In this document: piece by piece, positions 3,448 through 20,384 of the stretch
How positions within the stretch are numbered: the stretch's first letter is position 1
Layout of the letters: the number at the start of each line of letters is the position of its first letter
From: a virus
Taxonomy: Duplodnaviria > Caudoviricetes
Reading direction: 5' to 3' (one strand)
Length of the DNA: 64,000 nt
IMG/VR virus record: IMGVR_UViG_3300012018_000002
Span: 48,766 to 112,765 of that record
Position numbers and translations under genes: made by a program
The notes under the pieces: generated by a model
Databases searched by the model: none
Told to the model about the DNA's origin: nothing
Seen by the model: the letters and a program-made list of their open reading frames with translations, nothing else

Positions 3448-3834
3448 ATGGTAAAAAGAAACATAATTCAAATCCCTCTTTTCCAAGGGGAAGTTGAAGT
3501 TTATACTAACAAGAAGAAAATGTTAGATAGACTATTGGAAATAGGTTTGGTTAGAAAACTGAAAAAAGAAAAGACTGAAAAGTTCTTAGAATTGTTAGAG
3601 GGGGTAGTTTATTATGAGACAAAAACAGACCTTATAATAATAGTATATTTACCTTCAAAATATAATGATATAACAACTTCTCATGAGGTTATTCATATCA
3701 TTACTACTTTTTATAAGTATTATGATTTACCTGCTCCAAAGGAAGGTAAAGATGAAATATTTGCAAGATACCATGATTACTTCATGAGTGAAATAAAAAG
3801 TAAGATATATCGTATTCAGGATAAAACTGAATAA
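3448..3834 (+). CDS. Small HExxH (zincin-like) protein
   Basis: TTSHEVIHI motif followed by a downstream E (DEIFA). Confidence 0.6.
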   Translation: MVKRNIIQIPLFQGEVEVYTNKKKMLDRLLEIGLVRKLKKEKTEKFLELLEGVVYYETKTDLIIIVYLPSKYNDITTSHEVIHIITTFYKYYDLPAPKEGKDEIFARYHDYFMSEIKSKIYRIQDKTE

Positions 3835-3859
3835 ATCATTCATTAAATAAATTAATTAA

Positions 3860-3867
3860 TATCTTTA
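3860..3867 (+). promoter_or_regulatory. Putative -7 promoter element, near-leaderless transcript
   Basis: TATCTTTA 5 nt before ATG 3873; the same octamer occurs at 14495. Confidence 0.45.
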
Positions 3868-3872
3868 CATCA

Positions 3873-4280
3873 ATGATTCCAGTAATAAAAGATGAATATA
3901 AAGTAGAGGAAAAAGAGTTCTATAGAATTTACTTTAACATCTTCAATATAAAATTAGATAAAAAGTTAACCCCACAAGAGATAGAGGTTTTAGCAATATT
4001 ATGTAGTAAACCAATGAATTTCTATTTAGACAGTAAAAGGGCAGCAAATCACAAAAGTAGAAAATATGAGATAGCTGAAGAATTAGGAGTTAACAAAACA
4101 GTAATTTATGGGTTCTTAAATGGACTAGTTTCAAAAGGATTACTGATAAAAAAATCAGACGACTTTATGGAGTTACCACAAGGTATACAAACATTAAGGT
4201 CAGCAATAAAAAGTAATATAAAACAAAATCCTAAAAAAGAGTTTGTTTTTGATTATACATTTAATTTCACAGTAAAATGA
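3873..4280 (+). CDS. Winged-helix DNA-binding protein
   Basis: LTPQEIEVLAIL...KYEIAEELGVNKTVIYGFLNGLVSKGLL helix-turn-helix/wing pattern. Confidence 0.7.
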   Translation: MIPVIKDEYKVEEKEFYRIYFNIFNIKLDKKLTPQEIEVLAILCSKPMNFYLDSKRAANHKSRKYEIAEELGVNKTVIYGFLNGLVSKGLLIKKSDDFMELPQGIQTLRSAIKSNIKQNPKKEFVFDYTFNFTVK

Positions 4281-4492
4281 TAATTGATAAAATAGATGAA
4301 GCTATAAAAGGATGGAGAAAAAAAGTTAATGCAGACACTACTGATTTAACACCATCTTTTTTAATCCTTGACAGAGTATCTTACGCAGCCTTGCTTGATG
4401 CAAGAGGAATGGAAGAAGAAGACATTACTGAATATGCAGGAATGATAATTCATATAGAACCTAAAGATGAAGGAAAAGTCGAGTGCATTTAA
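4277..4492 (+). CDS. Hypothetical protein
   Basis: 71-aa ORF, ATGA-coupled to the upstream gene. Confidence 0.7.
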   Translation: MIIDKIDEAIKGWRKKVNADTTDLTPSFLILDRVSYAALLDARGMEEEDITEYAGMIIHIEPKDEGKVECI

Positions 4493-4970
4493 AGTAGAAC
4501 ATATGAATCCCTGGATGATGGGTGCAGTAGATACAAATAGGTGTGGAGAGTTAAAGTTTTTTGAAGGAAGTAAAGAACTAGACCCTGATGATGTTAACTT
4601 GTGGGATAAGGTAGATTCTAGTGTTTGGATTGAAGCTTATGATAAATCTGGTGAAAATATGCCTAATTATATGAAAGATTTATATCAAGCAGGTCTACCT
4701 AAAATAGCAATGACAGGAAAAAAAGCAGGTAAAGTTATCGTTTATGGAACTAGTGGAGACATGGACAAACATTCAAACTTTAAAGACCTATTTTACAATC
4801 CAGGACTAAGACAACAATTAAATAACAATGGCTATTTTATTTCAGGAGCTAGTAGAAAAGGTAAGCAAGAAAACAGGTTATTCAGAACAATTAGTAAAGC
4901 TTTGTATAAGGCACAAGTTTTCCTGGTTAAGACAACAAATGACATCTTCAGAAGAAGTCGCAATCTTTGA
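4467..4970 (+). CDS. Small protein resembling a terminase ATPase fragment (degenerate Walker B to motif III)
   Basis: KVIVYGTSGDMDKHSNFKDLFYNP aligns with TerL IAIIYGTGGDMEKGAKEFSEMFYNP in this window; its 3' end overlaps the next gene by 143 nt. Confidence 0.65.
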   Translation: MKEKSSAFKVEHMNPWMMGAVDTNRCGELKFFEGSKELDPDDVNLWDKVDSSVWIEAYDKSGENMPNYMKDLYQAGLPKIAMTGKKAGKVIVYGTSGDMDKHSNFKDLFYNPGLRQQLNNNGYFISGASRKGKQENRLFRTISKALYKAQVFLVKTTNDIFRRSRNL

Positions 4971-5100
4971 CCAGTTTTGGGGAACTTATCAACTATCTGA
5001 AAAAAGAATTTACAACTATCTTAAAAGACATCCAGAGGATGAATATTTTAAAGAATTATTCCAGAAAATAAAACAACACAATAAATCACGAAAAAAATGA
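4828..5100 (+). CDS. HU/IHF-like DNA-binding protein
   Basis: ELVEKVSKKTGYS...LVKLCI...FWGTY pattern of the HU/IHF N-terminal helices and FGTF-like strand. Confidence 0.6.
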   Translation: MAILFQELVEKVSKKTGYSEQLVKLCIRHKFSWLRQQMTSSEEVAIFDQFWGTYQLSEKRIYNYLKRHPEDEYFKELFQKIKQHNKSRKK

Positions 5101-5666
5101 GTGAAATAATGAATGAAGATATTTCTTCAAAAAACTATGATGAATTCGACTTTCCAGAAGGGTCAGAAAAAGAGCAAGAATATTTAAGAAAAAAACAAGA
5201 AGAAGTAGATACTTACAATCGAGAAATTACTAATTTCCATCCTTTTCTGAAAGAAAGAAAGTTTGTAGAAGGGAATATAATCGTAAGGTTATTTAAAATG
5301 GACATGGTAAAAGAGATAGAAGTAATGGGACAAACATCTCTTATTAGAGCTTACTCTAAAATGAAAGTTCCTAATGGTCATGATGAACATGGTAAAGAAA
5401 AATTCAAACATGTAGAAAATTTATTACCATATAAATTTGAAGGTGTAATTGCAGGATTTGATACTAGTTTAGACAAACCATTCTTAAAAAAAGATTTAAA
5501 GGTTCAGTTATCTCCTTTTAACATTTTGGATTATATTTATTATCCTGATAGAGAAAAAGAAGATGAACCTTGGACTGCTGAAGATGTAAAAAGAGGAAAA
5601 AATGTTTTACCTAATTTTGAAGGTTATGTTAAGATTAGAGCAAACATGATAGAGAGTTATGAATAA
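5097..5666 (+). CDS. Putative divergent, enlarged GroES-like co-chaperonin
   Basis: Overlaps the groEL start; strand pattern GNIIVR...EGVIAG...LKVQL...YVKIRANMI resembles GroES with long insertions. Confidence 0.45.
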   Translation: MSEIMNEDISSKNYDEFDFPEGSEKEQEYLRKKQEEVDTYNREITNFHPFLKERKFVEGNIIVRLFKMDMVKEIEVMGQTSLIRAYSKMKVPNGHDEHGKEKFKHVENLLPYKFEGVIAGFDTSLDKPFLKKDLKVQLSPFNILDYIYYPDREKEDEPWTAEDVKRGKNVLPNFEGYVKIRANMIESYE

Positions 5667-7188
5667 AATAATCGTATTCAATCAAGAAGCAAAACAAGCT
5701 TTAAAAAGAGGAATAGACAGTCTTGCTAATGCAGTAAGAGTTACTCTTGGACCAGAAGGTAAGACTGTCATTCTTGCTTCTTATAAAGATAATAAAGCCA
5801 CTATTACTAAAGATGGTGTGTCAGTAGCAAGACAAGTGTTCTTAAAAGACCCAGTAGAAAATGCAGCAGCTCAAATAGTTAAAGAGGTAGCTAATAAAAC
5901 AGCAGAAGATGCTGGAGATGGAACTACCACAGCTACTGTTTTAGCACAAGCTTTAATAACTAATTGTATTGATAAGAATTTAACAAGTAAGTTTTTTAAG
6001 CAGCTTTTAGAAGATAAAGATGCAGTAATTGAAAATATTAAATCTCAATCTAAAAAAATATCTTCTGAAGATACTGTTTCACTGATTAATGTTGCTTCTA
6101 TATCTGCTAACAATGATAAAGAGATTGGTAAGCTAGTAGCAGAAGCAATACAAAAAACAGGTAAACATGGAATAGTAACTGCAGAAGAAGGAGATTCTTT
6201 TGAGACAAAAATAGTTCTTAAAAAAGGTTTGAATTTTGAATCTGGTTTTATATCTCCATTATTTATTAATGATACAGATAAGTTAGAATGTGAACTAAGT
6301 AACTGTTGTATCTTTATGTATGATGAAGAGTTAACTAGAATTGAAGATGTATTACCTCAAATTAGATTTGCAAATGCAAGAAAAAAATCACTGCTGGTAG
6401 TTGCACCAGATATACACGGTGATGCATTAAGTGTTCTTTTAAGTCAGAAAAACCAAGGTTTTAAATGTGCTGCAGTTAAATCACCTAGTTTTGGTGAATA
6501 TAGAAAATCATTAATGGTAGACATAGCAACATTAACTGGTGGTGTAGTTGTTGAATCTCAAAAAAGAGTTAACTTTACTGAACTTTTAGAATCTCATTAT
6601 GGTTTTGCTGAAAGAGTAATAATCACTAAAGATGAAACTACAATAGTTGAAGGTAAAGGAAAAACAGAAAAAATAGAGCAAAGAGTAAATCAACTAGAAA
6701 AGCAAATTGAGAATACTGGTAATGAATATGAAGTAAGAATAATGAAAGAAAGAATAGCTAAACTTCAAGGTGGTATTGCTGTAATTAAAGTTGGTGGTTA
6801 TTCTGAAATTGAGATAAAAGAAAAGAAAGATAGAATAGAAGATGCTATCTTTGCAGTTAAAGCAGCTTTATTAGAAGGTATTGTAGAAGGTGGTGGTATT
6901 GCTTATTTAAGAGCAAAAGACCTTTGTAAGACAAAAGAATTACAAGAAGCTCTTTCTACACCATTTGTTCAAATAATGACAAATGCTGGTACATTAGATA
7001 TTCCTGCTTTACAAAACAATATAGTTCAAAAATATATTCCTGGTATTAATGCTAAAACAGGAAAGATAGTAAACATGTATGATGAAGGAATCATAGACCC
7101 ATTAAAAGTAACAAGAGTAGCCTTAGAGAATGCAGTAAGTATTGCTGTAACTTTCTTAACTACTGAATGTATAATTGTAGATGAATAA
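5659..7188 (+). CDS. groEL: Phage-encoded chaperonin GroEL (Cpn60)
   Basis: VTLGPEG, ITKDGVSVA, AGDGTTTATVLA, ERIAKLQGGIAVIKVG, GIIDPLKVTRVALENA; lacks the GGM tail. Confidence 0.97.
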   Translation: MNKIIVFNQEAKQALKRGIDSLANAVRVTLGPEGKTVILASYKDNKATITKDGVSVARQVFLKDPVENAAAQIVKEVANKTAEDAGDGTTTATVLAQALITNCIDKNLTSKFFKQLLEDKDAVIENIKSQSKKISSEDTVSLINVASISANNDKEIGKLVAEAIQKTGKHGIVTAEEGDSFETKIVLKKGLNFESGFISPLFINDTDKLECELSNCCIFMYDEELTRIEDVLPQIRFANARKKSLLVVAPDIHGDALSVLLSQKNQGFKCAAVKSPSFGEYRKSLMVDIATLTGGVVVESQKRVNFTELLESHYGFAERVIITKDETTIVEGKGKTEKIEQRVNQLEKQIENTGNEYEVRIMKERIAKLQGGIAVIKVGGYSEIEIKEKKDRIEDAIFAVKAALLEGIVEGGGIAYLRAKDLCKTKELQEALSTPFVQIMTNAGTLDIPALQNNIVQKYIPGINAKTGKIVNMYDEGIIDPLKVTRVALENAVSIAVTFLTTECIIVDE

Positions 7189-7204: not shown

Positions 7205-7280
7205 TGCGAGTGGGTGAAATGGATTAATCATTCTAGGCTCATAACCTACGAGATAATGGGTTCGATTCCCATACTCGCTA
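7205..7280 (+). tRNA. tRNA-Met (CAT), initiator-like
   Basis: GCGAGT/ACTCGC acceptor with 1:72 mismatch, loop CTCATAA, T-arm ATGGG-TTCGATT-CCCAT. Confidence 0.85.
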
Positions 7281-7354
7281 CATTGCAAAGAGATAGCTAA
7301 CAAATAGACATTGGAGGTTTCCAGTTATTGATAAAATTTGGAATCTGCTATCTC

Positions 7355-7428
7355 ACATACATTGACTCATTGGCGTGATAAGTGGTCTCCAAAACCATGA
7401 TTTGCAGGTTCGACTCCTGCTCTCTGTG
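7355..7428 (+). tRNA. tRNA-Trp (CCA), degenerate 5' half
   Basis: GTGGT-CTCCAAA-ACCAT anticodon arm and GCAGG-TTCGACT-CCTGC T-arm intact; acceptor ACATACA/TCTCTGT has 2 mismatches; weak D-stem. Confidence 0.6.
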
Positions 7429-7443
7429 CTAAATTAAAAAACT

Positions 7444-7599
7444 ATGGATGAAATAAAAACAAAACTATTGCAACAATTACATCGTGCAATAGAAAGTCTT
7501 GAAGGTCAAGATATTAACAATATTGAAGATGTAAAAAATTTTATGTTTATTATACAACAATCTAGTCAAATTATTAGTGTAATAAATAATTTAAACTAA
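7444..7599 (+). CDS. Small hypothetical protein (51 aa, MDEIKTKLLQQLHRAIE...)
   Basis: Manual translation; AAAAACTATG start context typical of this genome. Confidence 0.6.
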   Translation: MDEIKTKLLQQLHRAIESLEGQDINNIEDVKNFMFIIQQSSQIISVINNLN

Positions 7600-7673
7600 G
7601 TGGTGTTTGAAAGAGTTACTTCAACTTTTCTGAACAGAGTTACCAAATAAACTCTTTCTATTTTTCCCTTAGT
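7595..7673 (+). ncRNA. Flavo-1-like RNA motif
   Basis: ACTAAG.GG/CCCTTAGT outer stem, GGTGT, GAAAGAGTT/AACTCTTTC inner stem with the GTTACTTC hallmark and a TATTTTT internal loop; matches my recollection of the Flavo-1 consensus. Confidence 0.6.
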
Positions 7674-7677
7674 ATTT

Positions 7678-7750
7678 AGTTCTGTAGCCCAACGGAAGAG
7701 GCACATGCCTTAGGAGCATGATAGTAAGAGTTCGAGTCTCTTTAGAACTA
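7678..7750 (+). tRNA. tRNA-Leu (TAG), short variable region
   Basis: AGTTCTG/TAGAACT, CATGC-CTTAGGA-GCATG, AAGAG-TTCGAGT-CTCTT. Confidence 0.85.
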
Positions 7751-7755
7751 CAATT

Positions 7756-7826
7756 ATCCTTTTAGTTCAATGGAAGAACGCCATCTTTACATGGTGGTTA
7801 AAGAGGTTCGATTCCTTTAAAGGATA
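7756..7826 (+). tRNA. tRNA-Val (TAC)
   Basis: ATCCTTT/AAAGGAT, GTTC/GAAC D-stem, CCATC-TTTACAT-GGTGG, AGAGG-TTCGATT-CCTTT. Confidence 0.85.
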
Positions 7827-7832
7827 CTAAAT

Positions 7833-7914
7833 TGAGTGGTAGACAAGCTGGAAAAATCAAGTGTCTGTAAAACATGCGTCTTTGACTATGGGGGTTCGAG
7901 TCCCTCTCACTCAA
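7833..7914 (+). tRNA. tRNA-Tyr (GTA)
   Basis: TGAGTGG/TCACTCA, loop CTGTAAA, long variable arm, GGGGG-TTCGAGT-CCCTC. Confidence 0.85.
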
Positions 7915-7999
7915 CAAATAAAACTCACGCTACTGAAGCCTCCTATATGGTGCTCTTAAGTGAAAGTAAATAGCTGTAGAATAGCGGAGTTTTTTATCA

Positions 8000-8072
8000 G
8001 CCAATTAAGCTTTGCTCGGTGAAGTCCTCACTTGTAATGAGGAGGAAGTGGGTTCAAATCCTACAATTGGCA
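8000..8072 (+). tRNA. tRNA-Thr (TGT)
   Basis: GCCAATT/AATTGGC, CCTCA-CTTGTAA-TGAGG, GTGGG-TTCAAAT-CCTAC. Confidence 0.9.
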
Positions 8073-8077
8073 CAATT

Positions 8078-8467
8078 ATGATAAAACAATGTAAAATATG
8101 TGGAAAAGAATATGGTAAACTTAAATCTTATGAAAGAAAAAGAAATAAGTGTTCATCTTGTCATACAAAAATTAGAAGGTTTATAAATAAAGAAAGAGCG
8201 GTAGCTTATTTAGGAGGAAAATGTAATAGATGTGGATATACTAATCAAGAAGCTCTTGAATTTCACCATATAGACAAGACTACAAAAGATTTTAATATAG
8301 GATGTGTTGCAAATAAATCATGGGACTCTATATTAAAAGAAATAAAAAAGTGTGAATTATTATGTTCAAACTGTCATAGAATTGAACATACAAATAGAAA
8401 CTCTAAAGAATTTATAGAAGCAGTAATTGAATATAAGAAAAATATGGAAACAGGGCAGGTCTGGTGA
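8078..8467 (+). CDS. Free-standing HNH homing endonuclease with Zn-finger CxxC motifs
   Basis: LGGKCNRCGY...LEFHHID...KCELLCSNCHRIEH; true start is the ATG at 8078, after tRNA-Thr. Confidence 0.88.
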   Translation: MIKQCKICGKEYGKLKSYERKRNKCSSCHTKIRRFINKERAVAYLGGKCNRCGYTNQEALEFHHIDKTTKDFNIGCVANKSWDSILKEIKKCELLCSNCHRIEHTNRNSKEFIEAVIEYKKNMETGQVW

Positions 8468-8520
8468 TATTGCGCTTGTTTGAAGAACAAGATAACTCTG
8501 TTCAATTCAGAGTGTTTCCA
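8446..8520 (+). tRNA. tRNA-Phe (GAA)
   Basis: GGAAACA/TGTTTCC, CTTGT-TTGAAGA-ACAAG, CTCTG-TTCAATT-CAGAG. Confidence 0.85.
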
Positions 8521-8587
8521 CAAAAGGGTTCATCATTGCGATAGCAAATGGACAAGAGTTCTGACCTTCCTCTGATAAGGTCAACTA

Positions 8588-8658
8588 GCAAGTGTCGTAT
8601 AATGGTAATACACTAGCCTTCCAAGCCTGTGATATAGGTTCGATTCCTATTATTTGCT
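8588..8658 (+). tRNA. tRNA-Gly (TCC)
   Basis: GCAAGTG/TATTTGC, GTAT/ATAC D-stem, loop CTTCCAA (anticodon stem has 2 mismatches), ATAGG-TTCGATT-CCTAT. Confidence 0.8.
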
Positions 8659-8659
8659 C

Positions 8660-8869
8660 ATGATTAAAATAGTTCCAATAGAAGAAGAATTAGAAAACAA
8701 TATTTCTCGACCATACACTAAAAAACAATGGCAGAAATTTGAAGAAGAAGCTAAAAGTTATATAGATAATATATTTTCGGGTAACTCAGTGGTAGAGTGC
8801 ATTCCTGATAAGAATGTGGTCGTAGGTTCAACTCCTACCCTGAAAACAAACATAAACTATGAAAATTAA
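8660..8869 (+). CDS. Small hypothetical ORF reading through tRNA-Ile
   Basis: ATG at 8660; the first ~38 codons look protein-like and the rest overlaps the tRNA. Confidence 0.4.
   Translation: MIKIVPIEEELENNISRPYTKKQWQKFEEEAKSYIDNIFSGNSVVECIPDKNVVVGSTPTLKTNINYEN
8775..8846 (+). tRNA. tRNA-Ile (GAT)
   Basis: TTTCGGG/CCTGAAA, ACTC/GAGT, CATTC-CTGATAA-GAATG, GTAGG-TTCAACT-CCTAC. Confidence 0.9.
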
Positions 8870-9047
8870 AATTATTATTGAAGGAGAAGAGCTTTCAGAA
8901 GTAATAGAATTTACTCATAAAGCATTAATGAATTACATTAATCATCCTCCAAATCCACCAATTTTATCAAGTATGGTAAATATGGTATTGTTAGATAAAT
9001 TTGAAAAACTAACAGAGGACGAGAAAAAAATATTCAATTTATTATAA
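8859..9047 (+). CDS. Hypothetical protein
   Basis: 62-aa ORF with AAACTATG start. Confidence 0.65.
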   Translation: MKIKIIIEGEELSEVIEFTHKALMNYINHPPNPPILSSMVNMVLLDKFEKLTEDEKKIFNLL

Positions 9048-9050
9048 ACT

Positions 9051-9587
9051 ATGGAAATTTTTAATATTATAAACGATGCTCCAGTCGTAACTCCAGAAGG
9101 ACTATATATTCCAGAATTAAGAAATATCTGGAATAGAGATAAAAGTCCACACAAAATAAAAGCACAAGGAGAACTTGCTGCTATTTATCATTTAATTGAC
9201 CCAAGAAGTTCTTATGCAAAACAACCTGAAGAAGAAAGACAGAAGTTAGTTGCAATAGATTATATTGGTGATGAAAATTGGATTCCTGACGAAGATATAA
9301 CACTAGCAATGGAAAAATACAGGATACTTATTATAGGTCCTGCTATGAGATTTTATTTATCATTAAAAAAGTTACTTGATTCTATATCTGATTATGCTAA
9401 CAACACAACAGTAAGAGGAGGAAAAGATGGTAACTTAACACAAGCTTTAGCTGCTATTGAAAAAGGAGAAAAAATTATGTCATCTCTTGAAAAAGCTGAA
9501 AAGATTGCCAACAGAGAAATACAAGCTACTGTTGCAAAACTTAAAGGTAATGCTAAGTTTGGATTTATTCAAGGAGAAAAATTATGA
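9051..9587 (+). CDS. Conserved crAss-like protein upstream of TerL (terminase small subunit candidate)
   Basis: ATGA-coupled to TerL; helical C-terminus; position typical of crAss-like genomes. Confidence 0.55.
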   Translation: MEIFNIINDAPVVTPEGLYIPELRNIWNRDKSPHKIKAQGELAAIYHLIDPRSSYAKQPEEERQKLVAIDYIGDENWIPDEDITLAMEKYRILIIGPAMRFYLSLKKLLDSISDYANNTTVRGGKDGNLTQALAAIEKGEKIMSSLEKAEKIANREIQATVAKLKGNAKFGFIQGEKL

Positions 9588-11824
9588 GGTCAGTAATAGA
9601 AGGTATAAGTCCAAAAGTAGCACTAAGATGGAATAGTATATTAGACGAAATTCCTGACAGTGTAAGACCTAGAGTTTCTGACTTAACAACTAGAAATTCT
9701 GTTAGTAATACAGGAATTCCTTATTTTTATTTTACAGATAGTTCAGTTTTTACTCCTGCTGCTAATGCATTTAGAGAAAGTGAGAAAAATGCACCTAAAG
9801 GAACTACTCCTACATACACACATTATTTAGAAGGAACCATTGCCTGGAAACAGTTTTGGAGACAAGAATATGAAAGATGTATTAATGGATATGAACCTGA
9901 AATAGATGGTGTTCCTTGTGGTGTTAGAATTACAGGAGAACACTATTTTTATTTGAATTATTGTAGGATAGTTCAAAAATACGAGGATGAAAAATCAGGT
10001 AAGGTAACTAAAAGAGAGGATTTTCCTGAGTTTTTATCTATGGACTTTTACTGGTTTCACATGCTTGAAAGAGCAGAAAACCCAGAAAGATTTGGTAGAA
10101 GCACATTTGAAAAAAGACATTTAATTATGGCTAAGGCTCGTAGAAAGGGTTGGTCATATAAAAATGCTGCAGGTGCTGTTTATGTATATTCATTTGTTCC
10201 TAATGGTAAGGTAGTAATAGGTTCTCAGTTTGGAGATAAAGGTAAGATTACATTTAACATGGCTATGACCATGATTGACTTTATCAACAAACATACAGAA
10301 TTTGCTCAACCTTGGGTTCAAAGAAGACAAACTAAAAACGATTGTTTTATTTTATCTGGTGCTGAAGAAGATATAGATGGTGTTAAAACTTATAAAGGTA
10401 TTAGAACATCTATAGAAACTGTATCCTTTAAAGATAGACCAGATGCTGCTGCAGGTCTTTATGCAACTAGATTCTTATTTGAAGAAGCTGGTCAAATTGA
10501 ACAATTAAAAGCTGCATTTGAGTTTTCTGAACCTACACTTAGAGATGGTGATTATCTTACTGGTATAGCTATTATCTATGGAACTGGTGGTGATATGGAG
10601 AAGGGTGCTAAAGAATTTAGTGAAATGTTCTACAATCCAAAAGACTATGGTTTAATGGAATTTGACAATATCTATGAAGATATAGAGTTATCAGGTAAGT
10701 GTGGATGGTTTGTAGATGATATGTGGTTTAGACCTGGTGAAATTACTATTGAAGATAAATTATACAAAGCTGTAGATGAGAATGGTAATGCACATAGATG
10801 GGTAGCTGAATTAACACTAGAAGCAGAAAGAGAAGTAAAAAGAAAATCATCAAGAGAAACTTACTCTACTTTTGTTACTCAGCGTTGTAAAACTCCTGCA
10901 GAAGCTTTCTTAGTAGTTCAAGGTAACGTATTTCCAGTTGCTGAATTACAGAGTATTTATGCTAGAAAAAGAGCATTAAATGAATTTACATTGTTAGGAA
11001 GAAATGGAAAACTAGTAGATACATTAGGTATTCCAAGATTTGTTCCAGATTTAAGGAATGAATTATATCCTATGGATACTTATCCTTTAAGGTCTCAAGA
11101 ACATAGTAAAGAAGGATGTGTTGTGCAATATGAAGCACCAAGAGAAATAGAGGGTTATGTGCAACCAGGTGCTTATGTAGTTTGTATGGACCCTATTGAT
11201 ATTGATAATGAAGGTGCAGAATCTTTGTGTGCTATCTATGTTATTAAAACTATGAAGTTTGCTCCTATTATTGGTGGAGATGAAATAGTAATGGAATACG
11301 TAGGAAGACCAAAAGAAGATACAATTGATACATGTAGTAGAATAGCATATTTAATGTGTAAATATTATAATGCTAAATTATCACATGAAAATGATAGAGG
11401 TGGTAAATCTGTAGCAGATTACTTTACTAAAAATAAAGCATATCATATGTTACTTAAACCACCAGCAAGAATGGTTTCTGGACATATTCAAAACTCCAGA
11501 ACACTGTTAAGAAAAGTAGGTCACTCAATGTCTTCTCCTCAAATGAAAGAATTAGGAGAAATATATTTAAAGAGATGGTTACTTGCAATTAGAGCAAAAG
11601 ATAGAGAAGGAAAAGAAATTCGTAACATGGATTTAATACCTTCTAAAGGTTTGTTTGAAGAATTAATTATGTATAACAGAGATGGTAATTTTGACCGAGT
11701 ATCTGCTTTAATGGGAGGAGTTTTACAATTACAAGAGTTGTTTAACGAGTTCAAAGAAGAGAACGAAGATGAAGAATCAGTAGGTTCTTGGTTTTCAAAA
11801 AGAACATCTTATTTTAGAAATTAA
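9584..11824 (+). CDS. terL: Terminase large subunit
   Basis: ITGEHYFYLNY, Walker A KARRKGWSY, Walker B FLFEEAG, YGTGG, nuclease CMDPID and GNFDRVSA: crAss-type TerL. Confidence 0.95.
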   Translation: MRSVIEGISPKVALRWNSILDEIPDSVRPRVSDLTTRNSVSNTGIPYFYFTDSSVFTPAANAFRESEKNAPKGTTPTYTHYLEGTIAWKQFWRQEYERCINGYEPEIDGVPCGVRITGEHYFYLNYCRIVQKYEDEKSGKVTKREDFPEFLSMDFYWFHMLERAENPERFGRSTFEKRHLIMAKARRKGWSYKNAAGAVYVYSFVPNGKVVIGSQFGDKGKITFNMAMTMIDFINKHTEFAQPWVQRRQTKNDCFILSGAEEDIDGVKTYKGIRTSIETVSFKDRPDAAAGLYATRFLFEEAGQIEQLKAAFEFSEPTLRDGDYLTGIAIIYGTGGDMEKGAKEFSEMFYNPKDYGLMEFDNIYEDIELSGKCGWFVDDMWFRPGEITIEDKLYKAVDENGNAHRWVAELTLEAEREVKRKSSRETYSTFVTQRCKTPAEAFLVVQGNVFPVAELQSIYARKRALNEFTLLGRNGKLVDTLGIPRFVPDLRNELYPMDTYPLRSQEHSKEGCVVQYEAPREIEGYVQPGAYVVCMDPIDIDNEGAESLCAIYVIKTMKFAPIIGGDEIVMEYVGRPKEDTIDTCSRIAYLMCKYYNAKLSHENDRGGKSVADYFTKNKAYHMLLKPPARMVSGHIQNSRTLLRKVGHSMSSPQMKELGEIYLKRWLLAIRAKDREGKEIRNMDLIPSKGLFEELIMYNRDGNFDRVSALMGGVLQLQELFNEFKEENEDEESVGSWFSKRTSYFRN

Positions 11825-11834
11825 AAAAAATTAA

Positions 11835-14417
11835 ATGATATTTAACTCATTACCACCGCAGAGAATATCTTTCGCTGCAAAAAATAAACAATGGAGAATT
11901 AATTGCATGGATTTTTTATGCACCCAGGCAAATCACCATTATCTGCATGATTTTAAAAGAATGTTAGATAATTACAATCTCCATAATAATATTATAAACC
12001 AAGAAGAATTCCAAAAGTATTGTGACCCTTTAGGTTTAGATGCAGGACAAGGTAAAGACTTTGTTCAAGCATTTAATAAAACACACAATAAAATTCAAGT
12101 ATTAAGAGGTGAAGAATTAAGAAGACCTTGGAATTTTCATGTAAAAGATTTTTCTCACAATGCAACTAACGAAGTAATAAGAGAAAAACAAAGAGAATAT
12201 AAGAATTATTTCAAAACTCATATTGAGTTAGAGATACAAAAGCAACAAGCTATTATTGATATTGAAGCTAAATTACAAGCTGGAAAAGTAAATAAAACAG
12301 AAGCACAAAGAGCTTATGAGCAAATTTCCCAGTCTTTAATGGCTAAAGAAAAAGAAGTATTAAATCCTGAAGAAATAGAAAGGAAGTTTAAAAGTTACAA
12401 AACATCAAAAGAAAAATTGATGAGTAAACTTCTTAGAAGTAAAACAGGTGAACTTGCTGTAAAACATAAGAAAAATGAAGCTTTCTTTGATTTAAATGTA
12501 GCAGGTATTGAAGCTGTTATGACTACAATTATCAATGGTGAACCACAAATAGAAATATTAAATCCATTAGGTGTAGCTTATCATAAATCACCAGAAATAC
12601 AGTTTTTCCAAGATGGTGATTATGTAGTTTATAAGAGAGAAATGTCATTAGGACAAATATTAGATTTATATGGTGATGATTTAAGTGATAGAGATTTAAG
12701 AGATATTAATGAGAGACTAACTAATATATTTGGAACTAATGCTAAAATGATGTCTGCAGATGGAGAATCTCCTTCTCACTGGGACCAATTAAACAGAAGA
12801 AGAGGACATGATTATTACTCTATTCAAAGTGTTCCTTTTACTGGTGGTTATGGACAAGGTAATACAAAAAATAGCTTTTTAGTTGTATATACAGGATTTT
12901 GGAAGAGTTATACTCAAGTAGGGTTTTTATCCTATACAGATGATAGAGGTGAAAAACAATCAACTATTGTTCCTGAAGAATTTCCTGTTCCAAAAGAAGC
13001 AAGAAAGATAACTTTAAAAGGTGATTTCTATAATAAGAAAACCAAATATGTATGGGTAGATGAAATAACAGGTTCTACAATGGAACTTATATGGGAATTT
13101 ATTCCTCAAGTTTGGGAAGGAACTAGAATTGGTCAAGATAAGTATTTGAATATCAGACCTTATCCTTATTCTAAAATGTCATTAGAAAATCCTTTTAGAT
13201 GTAAACTTCCTATTTTTGGAACTGCTTTAAATAATAGAAACTCTGTTATTACTTCTACAATGGATAGAATGAAACCTTGGCAAAGACTTTACTTATTAGT
13301 AATGACTAAGTGGTTAAAGTTAATTGCACAAGATAAAGGTATCATTCAACTATTAAACTTGTTAATGTTAGATAAGGATATAGGACCAGAGAAAACAATG
13401 CAATATGCAATGGACTTAGGTTATTTACCTTATAATCCATTAAGTAATACTGAAGCATCAGGTATAGTTCAAAATATGAAAGTATCTGAATCTGTAAATC
13501 TTTCTAACATTGCTAACATTAGATATTATACAGAAATACTTTCTTTCCTGGAAGCACAGATTGGAGAAGCTGCTGGTATATCTAAACCAAGAGAAGGACA
13601 AACAGGCAGTAATACAAACGTAGGTGATAACAGACAAGATTTACTACAAAGTGCTGTTATTACAGAACCTCAGTTTGCTGTGCATGACCTTATTTGGGAA
13701 GACATATTAAATGAATTAGTATATCTTACTCAAAGAAATATTGCAGAAAAAGGAGGACAATACTCAAGAGAAATACTTTCAGATGAAGAAATTGCCATAA
13801 TTGAAATGGATGGTATTGATTTTGTAAATTCTGATTTAGGAGTTAGAGTAGCTAATAACGGTGCTGCTAATACAGTGTTAGACCAAATAAAAGCTAATGC
13901 ACAAGCTCTTATTCAAAATGATAAGATTAATCTTTCTACATTAATGGAACTATTATCTACTGAAGACTTAGCAGAATGTAAGATGATTGTAAAAGACATA
14001 GAAGCAAATATAGCAGCTAGAGAAGAAGCTATGAACAATTCTAATCTTGAAAATCAAAGAGCAATTGAAAAAATGAGAGTTGAAGCAAGAGAAGATGAGC
14101 AATTACATGAAAAAGAATTACAAGAAATGAAAGATGCTGCTGCTCTTGAAAGAGAGTATGTTAAGGCTATAGGAACTGCAACTGCTGCTACTGGTGATAT
14201 TGATACTGATGATAACACTGTTCCTGATGTGCTTGAAATAGAAAGATTTAAACAAGAAGCAGAAATATCAAGAAAAGAACATGATTTGAATGAAAGAAAA
14301 CAAAGACATCAAGAAAAAATAGACACAGAAAAACTAAGATTAGAAAAAGAAAAAATAGCTTCTCAAGAGAGAATAGCTAAAACTAAAGCAGCTCAAGCAA
14401 AAAAGAAAACTACATAA
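11835..14417 (+). CDS. Portal protein
   Basis: Follows TerL; PPQRIS N-terminus, WEGTRIG, AGISKPREGQ, long charged coiled-coil C-terminus. Confidence 0.92.
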   Translation: MIFNSLPPQRISFAAKNKQWRINCMDFLCTQANHHYLHDFKRMLDNYNLHNNIINQEEFQKYCDPLGLDAGQGKDFVQAFNKTHNKIQVLRGEELRRPWNFHVKDFSHNATNEVIREKQREYKNYFKTHIELEIQKQQAIIDIEAKLQAGKVNKTEAQRAYEQISQSLMAKEKEVLNPEEIERKFKSYKTSKEKLMSKLLRSKTGELAVKHKKNEAFFDLNVAGIEAVMTTIINGEPQIEILNPLGVAYHKSPEIQFFQDGDYVVYKREMSLGQILDLYGDDLSDRDLRDINERLTNIFGTNAKMMSADGESPSHWDQLNRRRGHDYYSIQSVPFTGGYGQGNTKNSFLVVYTGFWKSYTQVGFLSYTDDRGEKQSTIVPEEFPVPKEARKITLKGDFYNKKTKYVWVDEITGSTMELIWEFIPQVWEGTRIGQDKYLNIRPYPYSKMSLENPFRCKLPIFGTALNNRNSVITSTMDRMKPWQRLYLLVMTKWLKLIAQDKGIIQLLNLLMLDKDIGPEKTMQYAMDLGYLPYNPLSNTEASGIVQNMKVSESVNLSNIANIRYYTEILSFLEAQIGEAAGISKPREGQTGSNTNVGDNRQDLLQSAVITEPQFAVHDLIWEDILNELVYLTQRNIAEKGGQYSREILSDEEIAIIEMDGIDFVNSDLGVRVANNGAANTVLDQIKANAQALIQNDKINLSTLMELLSTEDLAECKMIVKDIEANIAAREEAMNNSNLENQRAIEKMRVEAREDEQLHEKELQEMKDAAALEREYVKAIGTATAATGDIDTDDNTVPDVLEIERFKQEAEISRKEHDLNERKQRHQEKIDTEKLRLEKEKIASQERIAKTKAAQAKKKTT

Positions 14418-15655: not shown

Positions 15656-17173
15656 ATGCAATTTACAATGTCGGGGCTAAAGCCCACCCTTATCACAGAA
15701 GGTTTTGGAGGTAACTCAGTTAACTCTACTCACCTTATTAGAACTTATGGTCTTGATAAAAAAGATGACTTGTCAGTAAACGCTACTGGTATTGCTCAAT
15801 TATTTTCTGCTACCGATAGATATGGTGATAAACCTATGATTGGTATGACTGAAGCTAAAGGTAAAAAAATCTATCTTAGCTCTAATCAATATAGCTGGAA
15901 GTTGAGAGGATACATGAAACAAGTAGCTACAGTTACTGAAGTTATCGAAACATCTAGTAGACCAGGTGAAAACCAATCAGAATTTCAAGTTGTTTTAAAC
16001 AGAGGATGGTATAAAGAACCAGACGTTCTTATCTCTGAATCTAACGCTTATCCTCTTGAAATTGTAGGTAGTCCTTATCAAAAAGGATTAGGTTGGGTTT
16101 ATACTTTAAGAATCCAAACTGATGATAACTCTTACTACATTCCTACTGAATTTATTCAAGTTGGTAGAGAATTTAGAAAAGTGTCTACTTCAGTTGTAGA
16201 TGAAGAAAACAACAAATATGGTACAATTCAGTTTAACTCAATCTTTGAATTGAGAAGCCAAACTGGAAACGTAGCTGAGAAATTTGAGTTTTCTGATAAA
16301 GCTCTTAGGGTAGATAAAAACTCTGCTAATTCAAAAGCATTACACTGGAATGTTCCTTTCTTCGATAACAAAGGTAAAGAATATAGAAACTTTATGCCTT
16401 TGGCAGAAGCAGAAATGATGAACCAGGTATATGAAGATATTGAATGGGGATTAGTTTTTGGTAGAAAATCACTAAGAAATGTTGGTCCTTCAGGTTATGT
16501 TAAAAGAACTGGTCCTGGTTTAAGACAACAATTAGAGTATGGTCACACTCTATACCATAACAACAACTTAACACTTGCCAAACTTGACCAATGGCTAAAT
16601 GCTATCTATAGAGGTAGAAAAGATGCTACTCCTGATAAAAGAAGAATTATCTTAATGACAGGAGAGATGGGTGCTACAATGTTCCATAACATGGTTGCTT
16701 CTCAAGCTTCTGCTTTCTTAACTGTAGATACACACTATATTGAGAAAGAAAGTGATGTAAGACACTTAGCATTTGGTGCTCAGTTTACTCACTACAAAGG
16801 TATCAATGGTCTTGATGTTACTGTAATGCTGAACCCAGCTTACGATAACCCTGATTATTGTCCTCAAACTCACCCTATTTACACTGACACAGTATTAGAC
16901 TCTTGGAGAATGGATATTCTTGACTTCGGAGTAGCAATGCAATCAGGAACTGATGCAATGGGAGATAACATCTCTATGGTTTGTGAACAGTATGCTGATT
17001 ACTTCTTTACTACTGCAGGTAAATGGAATCCTAAAACTGGTATGCCAATTAACGATGGTAGCCCTGGTTTAGCAGGTGGTATCTCAGGTTATGCAACATT
17101 CATGGAAAAATCTTTCGGTCTGTTGATTAGAGATATTTCAAGATGTGGTTCTATTCAATTGAGAATTACCTAA
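15656..17173 (+). CDS. Major capsid protein
   Basis: 505 aa, crAss MCP-like motifs (YSWKL, RTGPGLRQQLE, ILMTGEMG, FGAQFTHY, NPAYDN); codon bias suggests high expression. Confidence 0.92.
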   Translation: MQFTMSGLKPTLITEGFGGNSVNSTHLIRTYGLDKKDDLSVNATGIAQLFSATDRYGDKPMIGMTEAKGKKIYLSSNQYSWKLRGYMKQVATVTEVIETSSRPGENQSEFQVVLNRGWYKEPDVLISESNAYPLEIVGSPYQKGLGWVYTLRIQTDDNSYYIPTEFIQVGREFRKVSTSVVDEENNKYGTIQFNSIFELRSQTGNVAEKFEFSDKALRVDKNSANSKALHWNVPFFDNKGKEYRNFMPLAEAEMMNQVYEDIEWGLVFGRKSLRNVGPSGYVKRTGPGLRQQLEYGHTLYHNNNLTLAKLDQWLNAIYRGRKDATPDKRRIILMTGEMGATMFHNMVASQASAFLTVDTHYIEKESDVRHLAFGAQFTHYKGINGLDVTVMLNPAYDNPDYCPQTHPIYTDTVLDSWRMDILDFGVAMQSGTDAMGDNISMVCEQYADYFFTTAGKWNPKTGMPINDGSPGLAGGISGYATFMEKSFGLLIRDISRCGSIQLRIT

Positions 17174-17245: not shown

Positions 17246-18316
17246 ATGTCATTAAAATTAGAAACTGGGAGAAAGGTTATAGTAAGACCTAACCCAAACA
17301 TTAGACCTGTTGTTAAGTATGAAAGAGTAACAGAAAGAGATTCCCAAGGGAATGATATTACAGAACCAGATAGAGAACTTACCAGAGCACCTGGAACTAA
17401 ATTTACTTTTATGGCAAGTCCTTCAGCTTTACTAAATGGTTATCTTGCTACAGGAATGCACCACATGGTTGCTAATCCTTACAAAGACCAAAAGAATTAT
17501 AAATCAGCAGCTTGGAAAGATATTTTACATGAGAATGATGAAGTATTACTAAGCAATGTTATTGAGTATAAATTTAATAAACCAATTGGTTATTACTCTA
17601 ATGAAGTTGATTTACAAAGAGTAACACCAGTAATTCTTGCAAAAGATTTACCAAAAGAATTCAATTTCTGGCAAAGTGATTTAGCCATGTTTGATTTAGA
17701 AGATGGTGGTATGGTGCTTAACTTAGACAAAGAAAGAGATTTAATTCTTTACTATTTGTTAAAAGAAGACCCAATGTGTGCTAATAGTTATGAAGAACTA
17801 AGTCCAATGACAAGATTCTTTATTGCTGCAGAACACGAAGAAGAACAAAGAAAAGTAACAAAAGATAAGTCTATTGACATTGCATTGTCAAAACTTGTTG
17901 AAATTGACTCAGAAAGTGATTCTGATAAATTAATAAAATCATTTGGTAATGTGCTTGGTGTAAGAACTAAAGGTATTAGCAAAGAAAGAACTTATCAAGA
18001 ATTAAGTAATAGATTAAAACAAAACAAAGCTGACTTCATTACTAACTTTAATTATTATTACAAGTTATGGAAAGAACCAGCAACTAGACAAGAATTCGCT
18101 GTAAGAGCTAGATTAGTAGATTATACAGATTTTGGTGTAATTACAATGAGAGGTTCTGAATACAGTTGGTTGCCACCAAGAGATGTTGATGGAAAACAAG
18201 AACCTGAGATTACTTGGTTTAGAAGAGAAGATGTAATCAATTACTTATTAGATAAAAAATATCAAAAAGAAAGAAGCCTAATGGAGGCTCAACTAGAAGC
18301 TAAAGCTAAATATTAA
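17246..18316 (+). CDS. Conserved crAss-like protein downstream of MCP
   Basis: Synteny; FW...LEDGGMVLNL...DLILY motif. Confidence 0.7.
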   Translation: MSLKLETGRKVIVRPNPNIRPVVKYERVTERDSQGNDITEPDRELTRAPGTKFTFMASPSALLNGYLATGMHHMVANPYKDQKNYKSAAWKDILHENDEVLLSNVIEYKFNKPIGYYSNEVDLQRVTPVILAKDLPKEFNFWQSDLAMFDLEDGGMVLNLDKERDLILYYLLKEDPMCANSYEELSPMTRFFIAAEHEEEQRKVTKDKSIDIALSKLVEIDSESDSDKLIKSFGNVLGVRTKGISKERTYQELSNRLKQNKADFITNFNYYYKLWKEPATRQEFAVRARLVDYTDFGVITMRGSEYSWLPPRDVDGKQEPEITWFRREDVINYLLDKKYQKERSLMEAQLEAKAKY

Positions 18317-19059
18317 TGTTAATAGATAGAATGCATTATGAATTTGGAATCAGGTTTGACCAAGTGGATAACCAAAGCAAACCTGATTTCACACCTTTAG
18401 AAAGAGATACTTTCCTTAATAACGCTATTAGAGAGTTTATAAAAAAGAGATTTGGACTAGACCCTCAATCAAAAGTAGGATTTGAAAGTGACTCTGATAC
18501 AATTAGTGCTCTATCAACATTACACGTAGAATCTCCACAGACACAAGTAGAATTAACACCAAATAATTTAACAGATGGTATATATTCTATAAACTTGGAT
18601 GATTTAACTACTGAACCTTGGTTTATAACTAAAGTTCAAATTAGAGCAACTAAAGACAATTGTCCATCTAAAAAAATAGATTGTCGATATAAACCTATTG
18701 ATTTATTAAATGATAGGTTTTCAACACCTTCTTATAAATGGAAAAGATGTCCTTTTAGAATATCTTCAACATCTACAACAGGAAAATCAGCAATCTATAT
18801 GTTTACAGAAGATGATTTTGAAATTACATCATCTTTAGTATCCTACATAAAAAAACCAAATGTTGTTTTTATTGGTGGATATAATCAAATAGATGGACTA
18901 TATGATGCTGCTGACCCAAAAGTAAATTGTGACCTAGATGAAAATTATCATGATGAAATTGTAGATATTGCTGTTAGTTTAGCACTACGTTCTTTAGGTG
19001 ACAATAGAACACCATTATTTAAAACAGATATAATAAATAACAAACAAAAAATCAATTAA
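18316..19059 (+). CDS. Tail ring / head-tail adaptor protein
   Basis: MHYEF...D.FLN.A N-terminus and YIKKP...HDEIVDIAV C-terminus typical of crAss ring proteins. Confidence 0.75.
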   Translation: MLIDRMHYEFGIRFDQVDNQSKPDFTPLERDTFLNNAIREFIKKRFGLDPQSKVGFESDSDTISALSTLHVESPQTQVELTPNNLTDGIYSINLDDLTTEPWFITKVQIRATKDNCPSKKIDCRYKPIDLLNDRFSTPSYKWKRCPFRISSTSTTGKSAIYMFTEDDFEITSSLVSYIKKPNVVFIGGYNQIDGLYDAADPKVNCDLDENYHDEIVDIAVSLALRSLGDNRTPLFKTDIINNKQKIN

Positions 19060-19061
19060 TT

Positions 19062-20384
19062 ATGCATTCAAGTGTAAAAGTAGAAAAAATTCTTGTTGCT
19101 TCTGGAAACCAAGCTCTTGTAGCTCCAGGAACCTCATTAATTAATTCTTCTACTGGCGTATTTAACATTGCCAGTGGACAAATAGGTATCTTTGCAGATG
19201 GCAATGGAAACCTTACAAAAGATACAGCATTAGGTCCTGGAGATGACACAAATGATGCTCCTGGTATCTATATTGTTCAAGGAACAAGTGATTCTGCTGC
19301 TCCAAAAGCATCAATAGGAATTACTCCTCTTCCTATGAGAGCTGTAGAAAAATCTCAGTTTATCTTAAAAAATGGAGTATATCAATACAGAGGTGCTTCT
19401 TATGCTGCTCCTACTCATTCAACTTGGGTTATTGGTAGAAAAGATGGAACTTCTGGACAGATTAACGTAAGCTCAGAAAAAAGATATTCTTTTAGTATCG
19501 CTTTTGATGGTAGGAGAGTAGACGTATTAAATGGTAGAAATCAACCAGCTTTCTATCCTGACTTTACAACTCCTGATTTTACAGAAGAAGGAATTACAAC
19601 TACTGTAACAAAAAGAGATTACTTGCTAACTTATTTAGCTTTTGCAGCTAATCAGGAATCAAGACTTTATCCTGGTAATCCTGGTGGTGGAGACTTTATT
19701 TGTCTTGCTATTAGTGAAACAGGAACAGGTTCAGGAACTGCAATTTCTGGTATGTCAGCAGGAAATTATAACATTGGATATGATGGTAATGGTAATGTTA
19801 TTACTGTAGCTTTTACTGCAGATATGGTTACTTCATTAAAAGAAGCTATCGTAGCTAATGGTGGTCCTTTGGATAACACTTCAGAGCTTGTAACTTATAA
19901 CAAAGCTACTGCAGGTGGAGGAACTACTCAAGTAGATGTATTAGCTTTCATGGCTTTAGATTCTCCTACTGCTTATTTTGATAGAATTCCTCAAGTTAAG
20001 TCAAGACTTAAAGTTGGACCAGTTGAAGGATTTAACTCATTAGTTTATAAATCAGAAGTATGTAAAGCATACGAAGGTGAAGGAATTGGTAGAGCTTGGA
20101 AAATCTTCTATGAATCTACTGATGAATTAAGAAAATTTGCTTCTGAGCAATCTCCTTCTGCATATGCAATTCAATATAGTTCACCAATTGCGGGAACAGA
20201 AACTTTTGATGCATATACAATTTATCATGCTCAACCTGATTTTGCAACTAATGGTGCAAAAACTGAACATCCTTGTATGACTATTATTCTAAATCCTGTA
20301 GGAGATACAACTACTACAGCAGCTTTGGAAGCAGTTCTTAATCCTTGGATGATTTCTGCAGGTCAATTAGCCGTTAACCTTTAA
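19062..20384 (+). CDS. Auxiliary capsid-like structural protein
   Basis: Synteny after the ring protein, beta/Gly/Thr-rich, YEGEGIG motif. Confidence 0.65.
   Translation: MHSSVKVEKILVASGNQALVAPGTSLINSSTGVFNIASGQIGIFADGNGNLTKDTALGPGDDTNDAPGIYIVQGTSDSAAPKASIGITPLPMRAVEKSQFILKNGVYQYRGASYAAPTHSTWVIGRKDGTSGQINVSSEKRYSFSIAFDGRRVDVLNGRNQPAFYPDFTTPDFTEEGITTTVTKRDYLLTYLAFAANQESRLYPGNPGGGDFICLAISETGTGSGTAISGMSAGNYNIGYDGNGNVITVAFTADMVTSLKEAIVANGGPLDNTSELVTYNKATAGGGTTQVDVLAFMALDSPTAYFDRIPQVKSRLKVGPVEGFNSLVYKSEVCKAYEGEGIGRAWKIFYESTDELRKFASEQSPSAYAIQYSSPIAGTETFDAYTIYHAQPDFATNGAKTEHPCMTIILNPVGDTTTTAALEAVLNPWMISAGQLAVNL

Follow-up and report, generated by a model that had tools for sequence, protein, structure and literature searches.

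The window analysed here, a stretch of 64 kb (64,000 nucleotides, nt), forms the 3' end of a 112,765-bp IMG/VR record (IMGVR_UViG_3300012018_000002; CheckV completeness 64%) which stems from wastewater and represents a divergent crAss-like phage. Near the beginning of the window lies a small open reading frame (ORF), in the following called the mini-gene, at a distance of 5.1 kb upstream of the gene for the terminase large subunit (TerL) and on the same strand, in agreement with the place in the same gene block that a first-pass annotation, made from the sequence alone, had assigned to it. This annotation had regarded the ORF as a free-standing gene with a TerL-derived segment, and both the ORF and its match to TerL could be confirmed by BLASTP, hmmscan and profile comparisons. 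We conclude that the mini-gene is a genuine, fast-diversifying accessory gene of one subclade of crAss-like phages. It is built from three parts, a conserved N-terminal core (N-core), an exchangeable middle cassette and a tail that does no more than extend into the gene behind it. In the window phage the cassette is an old protein-level copy of TerL residues 304–352, and in relatives and co-circulating strains it contains pieces of the major capsid protein (MCP). The features on which this description is based are the following:

4467–4970, plus strand: the mini-gene, an ATG-to-stop ORF of 167 amino acids (aa).
4545–4685, plus strand: the conserved N-core, ORF residues 27–73, present in six of the eight family members.
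4659–4802, plus strand: the TerL-derived piece, ORF residues 65–112, corresponding to TerL 304–352 and consisting of a helix, the motif III strand and loop, and a helix ending in FYNP.
4686–4839, plus strand: the exchangeable cassette, 154 nt that are replaced in frame by 220 nt in allele B (protein P0002).
4800–4838, plus strand: a short MCP-like stretch of the window ORF, residues 112–124, in which PGLRQQL is identical to MCP 287–293.
10493–10639, plus strand: the source-type segment in terL, TerL residues 304–352.
15914–16030, plus strand: the source-type segment in the MCP gene, MCP 87–125, found once or twice in P0002–P0007 and degenerate in the window ORF.

The TerL of the window phage is encoded at 9584–11824, matches phrog_6681 with an E of 1e-112 and shows 34% identity to the TerLs of Flavobacterium and Bacteroides crAss-like phages. 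A BLASTP comparison of the ORF with this TerL gave an E of 1e-6, and ORF residues 65–128 match positions 300–364 of the phrog_6681 profile (hmmscan, E 1.3e-4). When the single ORF sequence was compared with a profile of 95 clade TerLs, residues 65–112 aligned to TerL 304–352 with an E of 7e-7, and a profile of the four members carrying this module matched the TerL profile with an E of 3e-9 and a probability of 96%. The similarity, which had been described as an almost gap-free alignment with TerL, is real but confined to this segment: the homology covers 48–53 residues and all alignments fall within TerL 303–356. The similarity claimed at the DNA level was likewise found only in part. The motif YGTSGDM of the ORF (4743–4763) and its TerL counterpart YGTGGDM (starting at 10577) are indeed located where they had been reported, but the nucleotide identity between the TerL piece and terL is about 50% over the aligned codons and is concentrated in codons for identical residues, in an AT-rich genome. 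For the capsid pieces described below the identity to the MCP gene is about 45%. With such values a recent gene conversion and a DNA-level decoy of a homing site are both ruled out, and because the DNA identity to the source genes is as low as 45–50% the similarity must be old and maintained at the protein level.

The strand and loop of motif III, the coupling motif of the ATPase, are present in the ORF, and G-T-x-G-[DE] is kept in all four carriers of the TerL piece. No BLASTP or profile alignment matches the ORF to the P-loop of TerL (Walker A, TerL ~185–195) or to its nuclease region, so the reported absence of both holds. The Walker B motif that had been described as degenerate (EE to DK) could not be recovered, as the profile alignments start at TerL 303/304, past the Walker B strand (TerL ~296–301). 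The N-core shows no detectable similarity to TerL profiles (E 0.18–0.24), and therefore the equivalence with 'DK' derives solely from a gapped BLAST extension. Among the four carriers the identity within the piece is about 50%, and to any TerL it is 36–46%. All of them nevertheless retain G-K-h-I-h-x-G-T-x-G-[DE], the very positions at which TerL itself does not vary. No donor TerL was identifiable among these comparisons, the best identity being 42–46% and the TerL of the phage itself ranking ninth.

TerL residues 150–460 were modelled with 41 homologues. The resulting ATPase model (pLDDT 90, a predicted score for the local distance difference test) matches the solved ATPase domains of P74-26 (E 1e-8), T4 gp17, D6E, Sf6 and HK97, and shows the Walker B strand followed by a helix at 308–319, the motif III strand at 328–334 and a helix at 341–350. 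A low-confidence model of the ORF has the same order of elements (helix 67–74, strand 90–95, helix 105–110). As the TerL match is limited to helix, strand and helix, without similarity in the P-loop, the nuclease or the N-core, the ORF is by its sequence a sub-domain fragment and neither an ATPase nor a folded mimic of the ATPase domain. The first-pass annotation had seen in it a mimic of the terminase ATPase, which has to be reduced to one helix-strand-helix element of ~48 aa that has no P-loop and no predicted fold. The comparison with TerL by profile and structure that it had suggested succeeded on the profile side (E 3e-9), but on the structure side the ORF model did not have the quality that a fold search needs. 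Judged from the models, the product is probably small and largely unstructured.

Relatives were sought in 5.8 billion proteins with a word index and, exhaustively, in 1.84 billion representatives with phmmer. The conserved free-standing homologues that had been anticipated do exist: seven were found among these billions of proteins, giving a family of eight members that is rare, each occurring on 1–4 contigs. In the exhaustive search no long, fused or intein-bearing forms of the mini-gene appeared. Searches with tblastn and megablast against 50,697 phage records gave no match, nor did scans of viral contigs with the family alignment, the upstream winged helix-turn-helix (wHTH) protein and P0009, and L003 was the sole match of a metagenome scan. 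P0009 is a singleton when searched with itself. The 9-kb contig L003 is syntenic with the window and carries, in this order, genes for the wHTH protein, a small protein, the mini-ORF, an HU-like protein, a GroES-like protein, GroEL and a terS-like gene. Comparing the N-core of the window with that of L003, we obtained a rate of non-synonymous substitutions (dN) of 0.129, a rate of synonymous substitutions (dS) of 0.604 and thus a dN/dS of 0.21, the neighbouring genes showing values of 0.08–0.37. The other two frames of the region are full of stops. The N-core is under purifying selection, a point on which the first-pass annotation had made its proposal depend. It has no paralogue among the ORFs of the 112.8-kb genome record, and its best match to the MCP, although collinear (MCP 174–199), is not significant (E 0.41). 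A search of the PDB with the N-core family profile gave a weak match to the tetratricopeptide repeats of the PEX5 receptor (E 6e-4; pattern ...DP.D..LW.K...), which is unproven and may be compositional.

Two further starts of the ORF are possible, at 4503 and 4518, the latter being that of the public 150-aa gene call P0001. At its 5' end the mini-gene shares 26 nt with the 3' end of the 71-aa gene upstream, and the start MK[ED][KM]S, overlapping the end of the upstream gene, is common to all full-length relatives. At its other end the mini-gene runs into its downstream neighbour:

4828–4970, plus strand: the ORF tail, the last 143 nt, lying over the HU-like gene in another frame and without selection of its own.
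4828–5100, plus strand: the gene of the HU-like small DNA-binding protein, with a weak match to Pfam Bac_DNA_binding (E 0.011).

The HU-like gene is 70% identical to its syntenic homologue in L003. Between the window and L003, 13 of the 24 substitutions in the tail fall on third positions of the HU frame, and all four single-nucleotide polymorphisms found there in populations are non-synonymous in the ORF frame, two of the four being synonymous in the HU frame. Selection in the overlapping part acts on the HU frame, and the tail is conserved only through the HU-like gene. As its 3' third lies over a real gene and is not selected in the frame of the ORF, one might suppose that there is no gene at all and that the frame is open by chance, across a regulatory or otherwise non-coding stretch that is conserved. 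We regard this as highly improbable in view of the dN/dS of the N-core and the stops in its other frames, the frame that is open in all eight divergent sequences despite many indels, and the two indels of +66 and +147 nt observed in populations, which are both multiples of 3.

The second source of the family, not noticed in the first-pass annotation, is the MCP, which is encoded at 15656–17173 of the window (505 aa) and matches gp32 of crAss001 (7QOF) with an E of 7e-23. Six of the eight members (P0002–P0007) carry pieces of it, namely MCP 46–58, 60–76, 87–125 and 282–299. A motif repeated in the relatives led with four queries to one and the same place in the genome, MCP residues 98–125 (tblastn, E 0.001–0.11), and the piece MCP 87–125 corresponds to the start of the region that is conserved with crAss001 gp32. 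The individual matches are:

P0003, two copies of MCP 93–125: E 2e-4 and 5e-4.
P0006, MCP 103–125: E 1e-4.
P0005, MCP 87–125: E 1.7e-5.
P0007, MCP 60–118: E 1e-4.
P0002, MCP 93–126: E 8e-3.
P0002, N-terminal insert, MCP 282–300: E 3e-3.
P0003 and P0004, MCP 46–58: E 0.04.

The family profile matches the MCP profile with an E of 2e-4 over 85 columns. In the window ORF the stretch around PGLRQQL agrees with the MCP in 7 of 7 residues (BLASTP, E 0.056; hhalign, E 0.028) and in 18 of 21 nt, which is weak when taken alone; the MCP stretch behind it, 282–300, recurs in the N-terminal insert of P0002. From the MCP and TerL matches together with the low DNA identity, the family can be described as a mosaic of old protein-level copies around a core. 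Other structural-gene fragments were not found as ORFs elsewhere in the 112.8-kb genome record, and no extra fragment copies were found in the loci of more distant relatives. In an all-against-all comparison the single open frame of 4647 aa at 43520–57460 of the window (C1:92285–106225) draws several weak chance matches; it is presumably one of the giant crAss-type proteins.

The TerL piece, whose exchangeability had likewise gone unnoticed there, is present in the window ORF, P0006, P0007 and P0009. It is cleanly missing in P0003, P0004 and P0005, and P0002 has a different sequence at this place. The same exchange could be observed in natural populations. The stretch is present in public runs of 11 studies covering wastewater, sludge, compost, soil and wetland, and Logan contigs from four of these studies were compared with positions 3800–5700 of the window. 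Contigs in which the cassette is swapped show at least 99% identity to the window in the 5' flank. Runs X4, X6 and X15 show the joint from 4685 to 4840; X18 has a loose end that reads into the P0002 allele. A second change in the swap contigs is an insertion of 147 nt at 4491–4493, and both changes together rebuild P0002, whose 238 aa equal 167 + 22 + 49. As run X4 also holds a contig with the window allele, both alleles co-circulate. The 3' flank of the swap contigs shows 10 differences in 403 nt compared to 1 in 886 nt in the 5' flank, which looks like a recombination tract. No match was found for the first ~48 residues of allele B. The swapped-in allele carries the MCP-like pieces listed for P0002, and the swap trades the TerL piece for a segment holding an MCP piece. 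The locus is hypervariable in natural populations, as would be expected for an arms-race gene. No RNA run was listed among the public runs with the stretch, two compost runs labelled 'transcriptomic' being probably DNA. One high-depth contig from X6 with a 2-nt deletion at 4215 matches only 4199–4230, is unlike the window on both sides and probably belongs to another organism or a repeat.

A possible source of the pieces is indicated by the homing elements of the clade. According to Pfam annotations several clade TerLs bear inteins, and in P0041 and L011 an intein containing a LAGLIDADG domain sits exactly between the G and the T of motif III, before TGGDM. This point corresponds to G333|T334 of the window TerL (~10582/10583) and to G94|T95 of the ORF, in the middle of the TerL piece. 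In L011 the TerL gene (8366–13975) encodes a polyprotein of 1869 aa with three inteins, at the P-loop, at motif III (Intein_splicing and LAGLIDADG_3) and near the C-terminus (Hint_2), and other clade TerLs have one or two inteins at the same sites. The MCP gene of L011 (17869–20447) is split after residue ~85 by an insert of ~1 kb that holds a LAGLIDADG-type gene of 271 aa (18308–19123) and a weak match to a group I intron (18118–18351; Rfam, E 0.036), and the second part of the split gene has its own ATG. The MCP pieces 46–76 and 87–125 of the family flank this insertion point, and in P0007 the TerL motif III segment is placed between its MCP pieces from either side of it. With an intein site inside the TerL piece and an intron site between the capsid pieces, we infer that cuts of homing endonucleases, followed by illegitimate repair or site-switching around them, gave rise to the pieces. 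For actinophages a related process, the 'extein switching' of inteins from one gene to another with a similar site, has been put forward (bioRxiv 10.1101/2025.01.02.630785). The mini-gene resembles the flanks of known homing elements, such as those of TerL inteins (bioRxiv 10.1101/2025.01.02.630785) and capsid-gene introns (PMC3706429), in that its pieces lie at such insertion points. In contrast to these flanks it contains no remnant of an element, its DNA is ~50% identical to the source sites and the exhaustive search gave no intein-bearing form; no remnant of an intein, intron or endonuclease was found in the ORF or any family member.

With these results we tentatively favour, at a probability of about 0.4, that the mini-gene encodes a hypervariable accessory protein acting by mimicry, on which conserved segments of capsid protein and terminase are displayed as linear copies. 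After illegitimate repair around homing-endonuclease sites had supplied the pieces, the protein would present linear copies of the most conserved segments of both parents and would thereby be a competitor of MCP and TerL in their nascent or unfolded state; the factor competed for, one that binds these segments, might be a host sensor or a chaperone or assembly partner. That the invariant residues of the parent are kept suggests that the segment must still resemble the parent to some partner, and a protein under this requirement that is probably disordered on its own would act as a linear mimic. Several observations weigh against such a function. AlphaFold2 applied to the ORF with the family alignment gave no confident fold (pLDDT 36.9; predicted template modelling score, pTM, 0.27), and the model from the ESM Atlas (pLDDT 0.49) yielded no usable feature match and only structure matches with template modelling (TM) scores below 0.5. 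The TerL piece is dispensable, being missing in four of the eight members, and the majority allele in the runs of the four studies lacks it. The capsid matches are modest when taken singly, and the MCP-like stretches of the window ORF itself are faint (E 0.03–0.06), its N-terminus being degenerate. Codon-level selection was measured for the N-core alone, between the window and L003. Finally, homing elements and similarity searches both favour the most conserved motifs, so that a coincidence of the two is partly to be expected.

Part of these facts would also suit an in-frame recombination scar, in which only the N-core has a function and the TerL and capsid pieces are tolerated passenger debris that is being deleted. 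The patchy occurrence of the TerL piece in four of the eight members, its clean deletion in P0003, P0004 and P0005, the majority allele without it, the lack of a predicted fold and the location of the pieces at or beside intein and intron sites all agree with this explanation, as does the poor conservation behind the motif when the ORF is compared with P0006. We nevertheless consider it doubtful, as neutral DNA would be unrecognisable at the dS of 0.6–1.8 found between the window and L003 and yet the source-invariant residues are kept in several lineages. Moreover, conservation of the capsid pieces on the N side roughly equals that of the N-core, and the frame is preserved by every indel seen. 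Should the pieces be neutral after all, the locus would still be a record of how fragments of genes are seeded at ectopic places of phage genomes by homing sites.

Bacterial immune sensors detect terminase and capsid protein more often than other phage proteins. A more specific form of the mimicry that we favour would be an immune decoy whose linear TerL and MCP segments occupy host terminase or capsid sensors and thereby block their activation. This would be a narrower version of the decoy proposed in the first-pass annotation. TerL and MCP are the commonest known triggers of abortive infection (PMC13601566, PMC13581612, PMC9712102), and linear or unfolded segments can be the element that is recognised, as for the Gol region (PMC3014915) and for Upx, which in models threads, by beta-augmentation, core strands of the TerL ATPase that are unfolded (PMC13601566). 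Since the ORF offers a small, probably unfolded element, the folded-domain recognition described for Avs2 and Avs3 (PMC13601566) does not obviously apply, and candidate targets would be Upx-like beta-augmentation sensors or the EF-Tu-linked systems Lit/Gol and Avs7, the latter sensing MCP together with EF-Tu (PMC13581612), rather than the pocket-type Avs1–3. An arms race would agree with the cassette polymorphism that four studies show among near-identical strains, and one might imagine a modular anti-sensor decoy with a constant N-core whose cassettes are swapped between TerL and capsid pieces as local host defences change. We rate the decoy, also in its modular form, as unlikely. The known small TerL-like proteins Ksap1, Ksap2 and vs.8 activate Avs2 and do not block it (PMC11564622, PMC13601566), and the ORF offers just one of the several core strands that Upx is modelled to bind. 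A phage countermeasure imitating terminase or capsid protein was not described in the literature searched; if the decoy were real, it would represent an undescribed class of phage 'self-mimic' counter-defence proteins.

The closest known relatives in kind are these small TerL-like proteins, which were reported as Avs2 activators (Evans et al. 2026, PMC13601566; Bechon et al. 2024, PMC11564622). T4 vs.8 is domain-sized and retains Walker A and B, and Ksap1 and Ksap2 have a folded sheet-plus-helix structure (PMC13601566, PMC11564622). Like them the mini-gene is a stand-alone phage gene apart from terL that is related to the TerL ATPase and restricted to one lineage. Unlike them it contains only ~48 TerL residues, joined to capsid-like and unrelated segments, lacks a P-loop and is not predicted to fold. 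By its sequence it belongs neither to the TerL family nor to the vs.8-type paralogues, motif III being the only one of their defining features that it has. The capsid side can be compared with the Gol region of T4 gp23, a linear stretch of 29 residues in the first quarter of the protein and its most conserved part. By itself this stretch is biologically active; it binds EF-Tu, is a sufficient trigger in combination with it and licenses Lit (PMC3014915). The main capsid piece of the family (MCP 87–125 of 505) is also derived from the first quarter of the MCP and from its conserved part. Gol, however, is part of the capsid protein and triggers defence, whereas the segment of the mini-gene has been copied into a separate small gene, and besides its TerL piece the window allele shows no more than faint MCP-like stretches. 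In the literature searched we found no description of chimeric mini-proteins made from TerL and MCP fragments or of cassette swapping between them. The mini-gene extends the known small phage proteins derived from the TerL ATPase, and there is a real chance that it belongs to an undescribed class.

In eukaryotes, microProteins and dominant-negative fragments are sub-domain pieces that compete for the partners of their parent. The mini-gene would similarly turn part of a domain of a larger protein, encoded in the same genome, into a small protein, with the differences that it is a phage gene, a mosaic of two parents and has exchangeable cassettes. It could accordingly be imagined as a modulator of assembly or packaging, a microProtein-like dominant negative or timing factor that pairs with unfolded or assembling TerL and MCP, either of the phage itself or of co-infecting relatives, possibly with participation of the adjacent GroES-like/GroEL pair. 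Its position in a same-strand block, one gene before this pair and 5 kb upstream of the terS-like gene, terL, portal and MCP genes, would be in line with such a role, and its pieces are core strand or helix elements, by which parents that are only partly folded could be complemented or capped. An essential role in assembly does not go well with a cassette that is polymorphic and dispensable, though, and the pieces are at most 46% identical to any particular TerL, which makes the modulator quite improbable in our view.

Whichever partner linear mimicry would address, the locus represents a compact natural experiment, in which a small protein with a selected core alternates between TerL and capsid cassettes in near-identical wild genomes. 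It makes testable whether sub-domain self-mimicry exists, who its partners are (sensors, EF-Tu and chaperones, or assembly proteins) and whether homing endonucleases are a source of its raw material.

With regard to the neighbourhood, the GroES-like/GroEL pair is separated from the mini-gene by one gene, that of the HU-like protein. At 5097–7188 of the window the GroES-like gene of ~189–190 aa overlaps the start of the 509-aa GroEL gene, and the GroES-like gene is conserved beside terL also in distant relatives. Further downstream eight tRNA genes (Met, Leu, Val, Tyr, Thr, Phe, Gly and Ile) are clustered at 7205–8847. Among them an HNH-like ORF of 151 aa (8012–8467) begins inside tRNA-Thr and ends inside tRNA-Phe, and it has a paralogue elsewhere in the genome (C1:43998–44498, E 1e-14).

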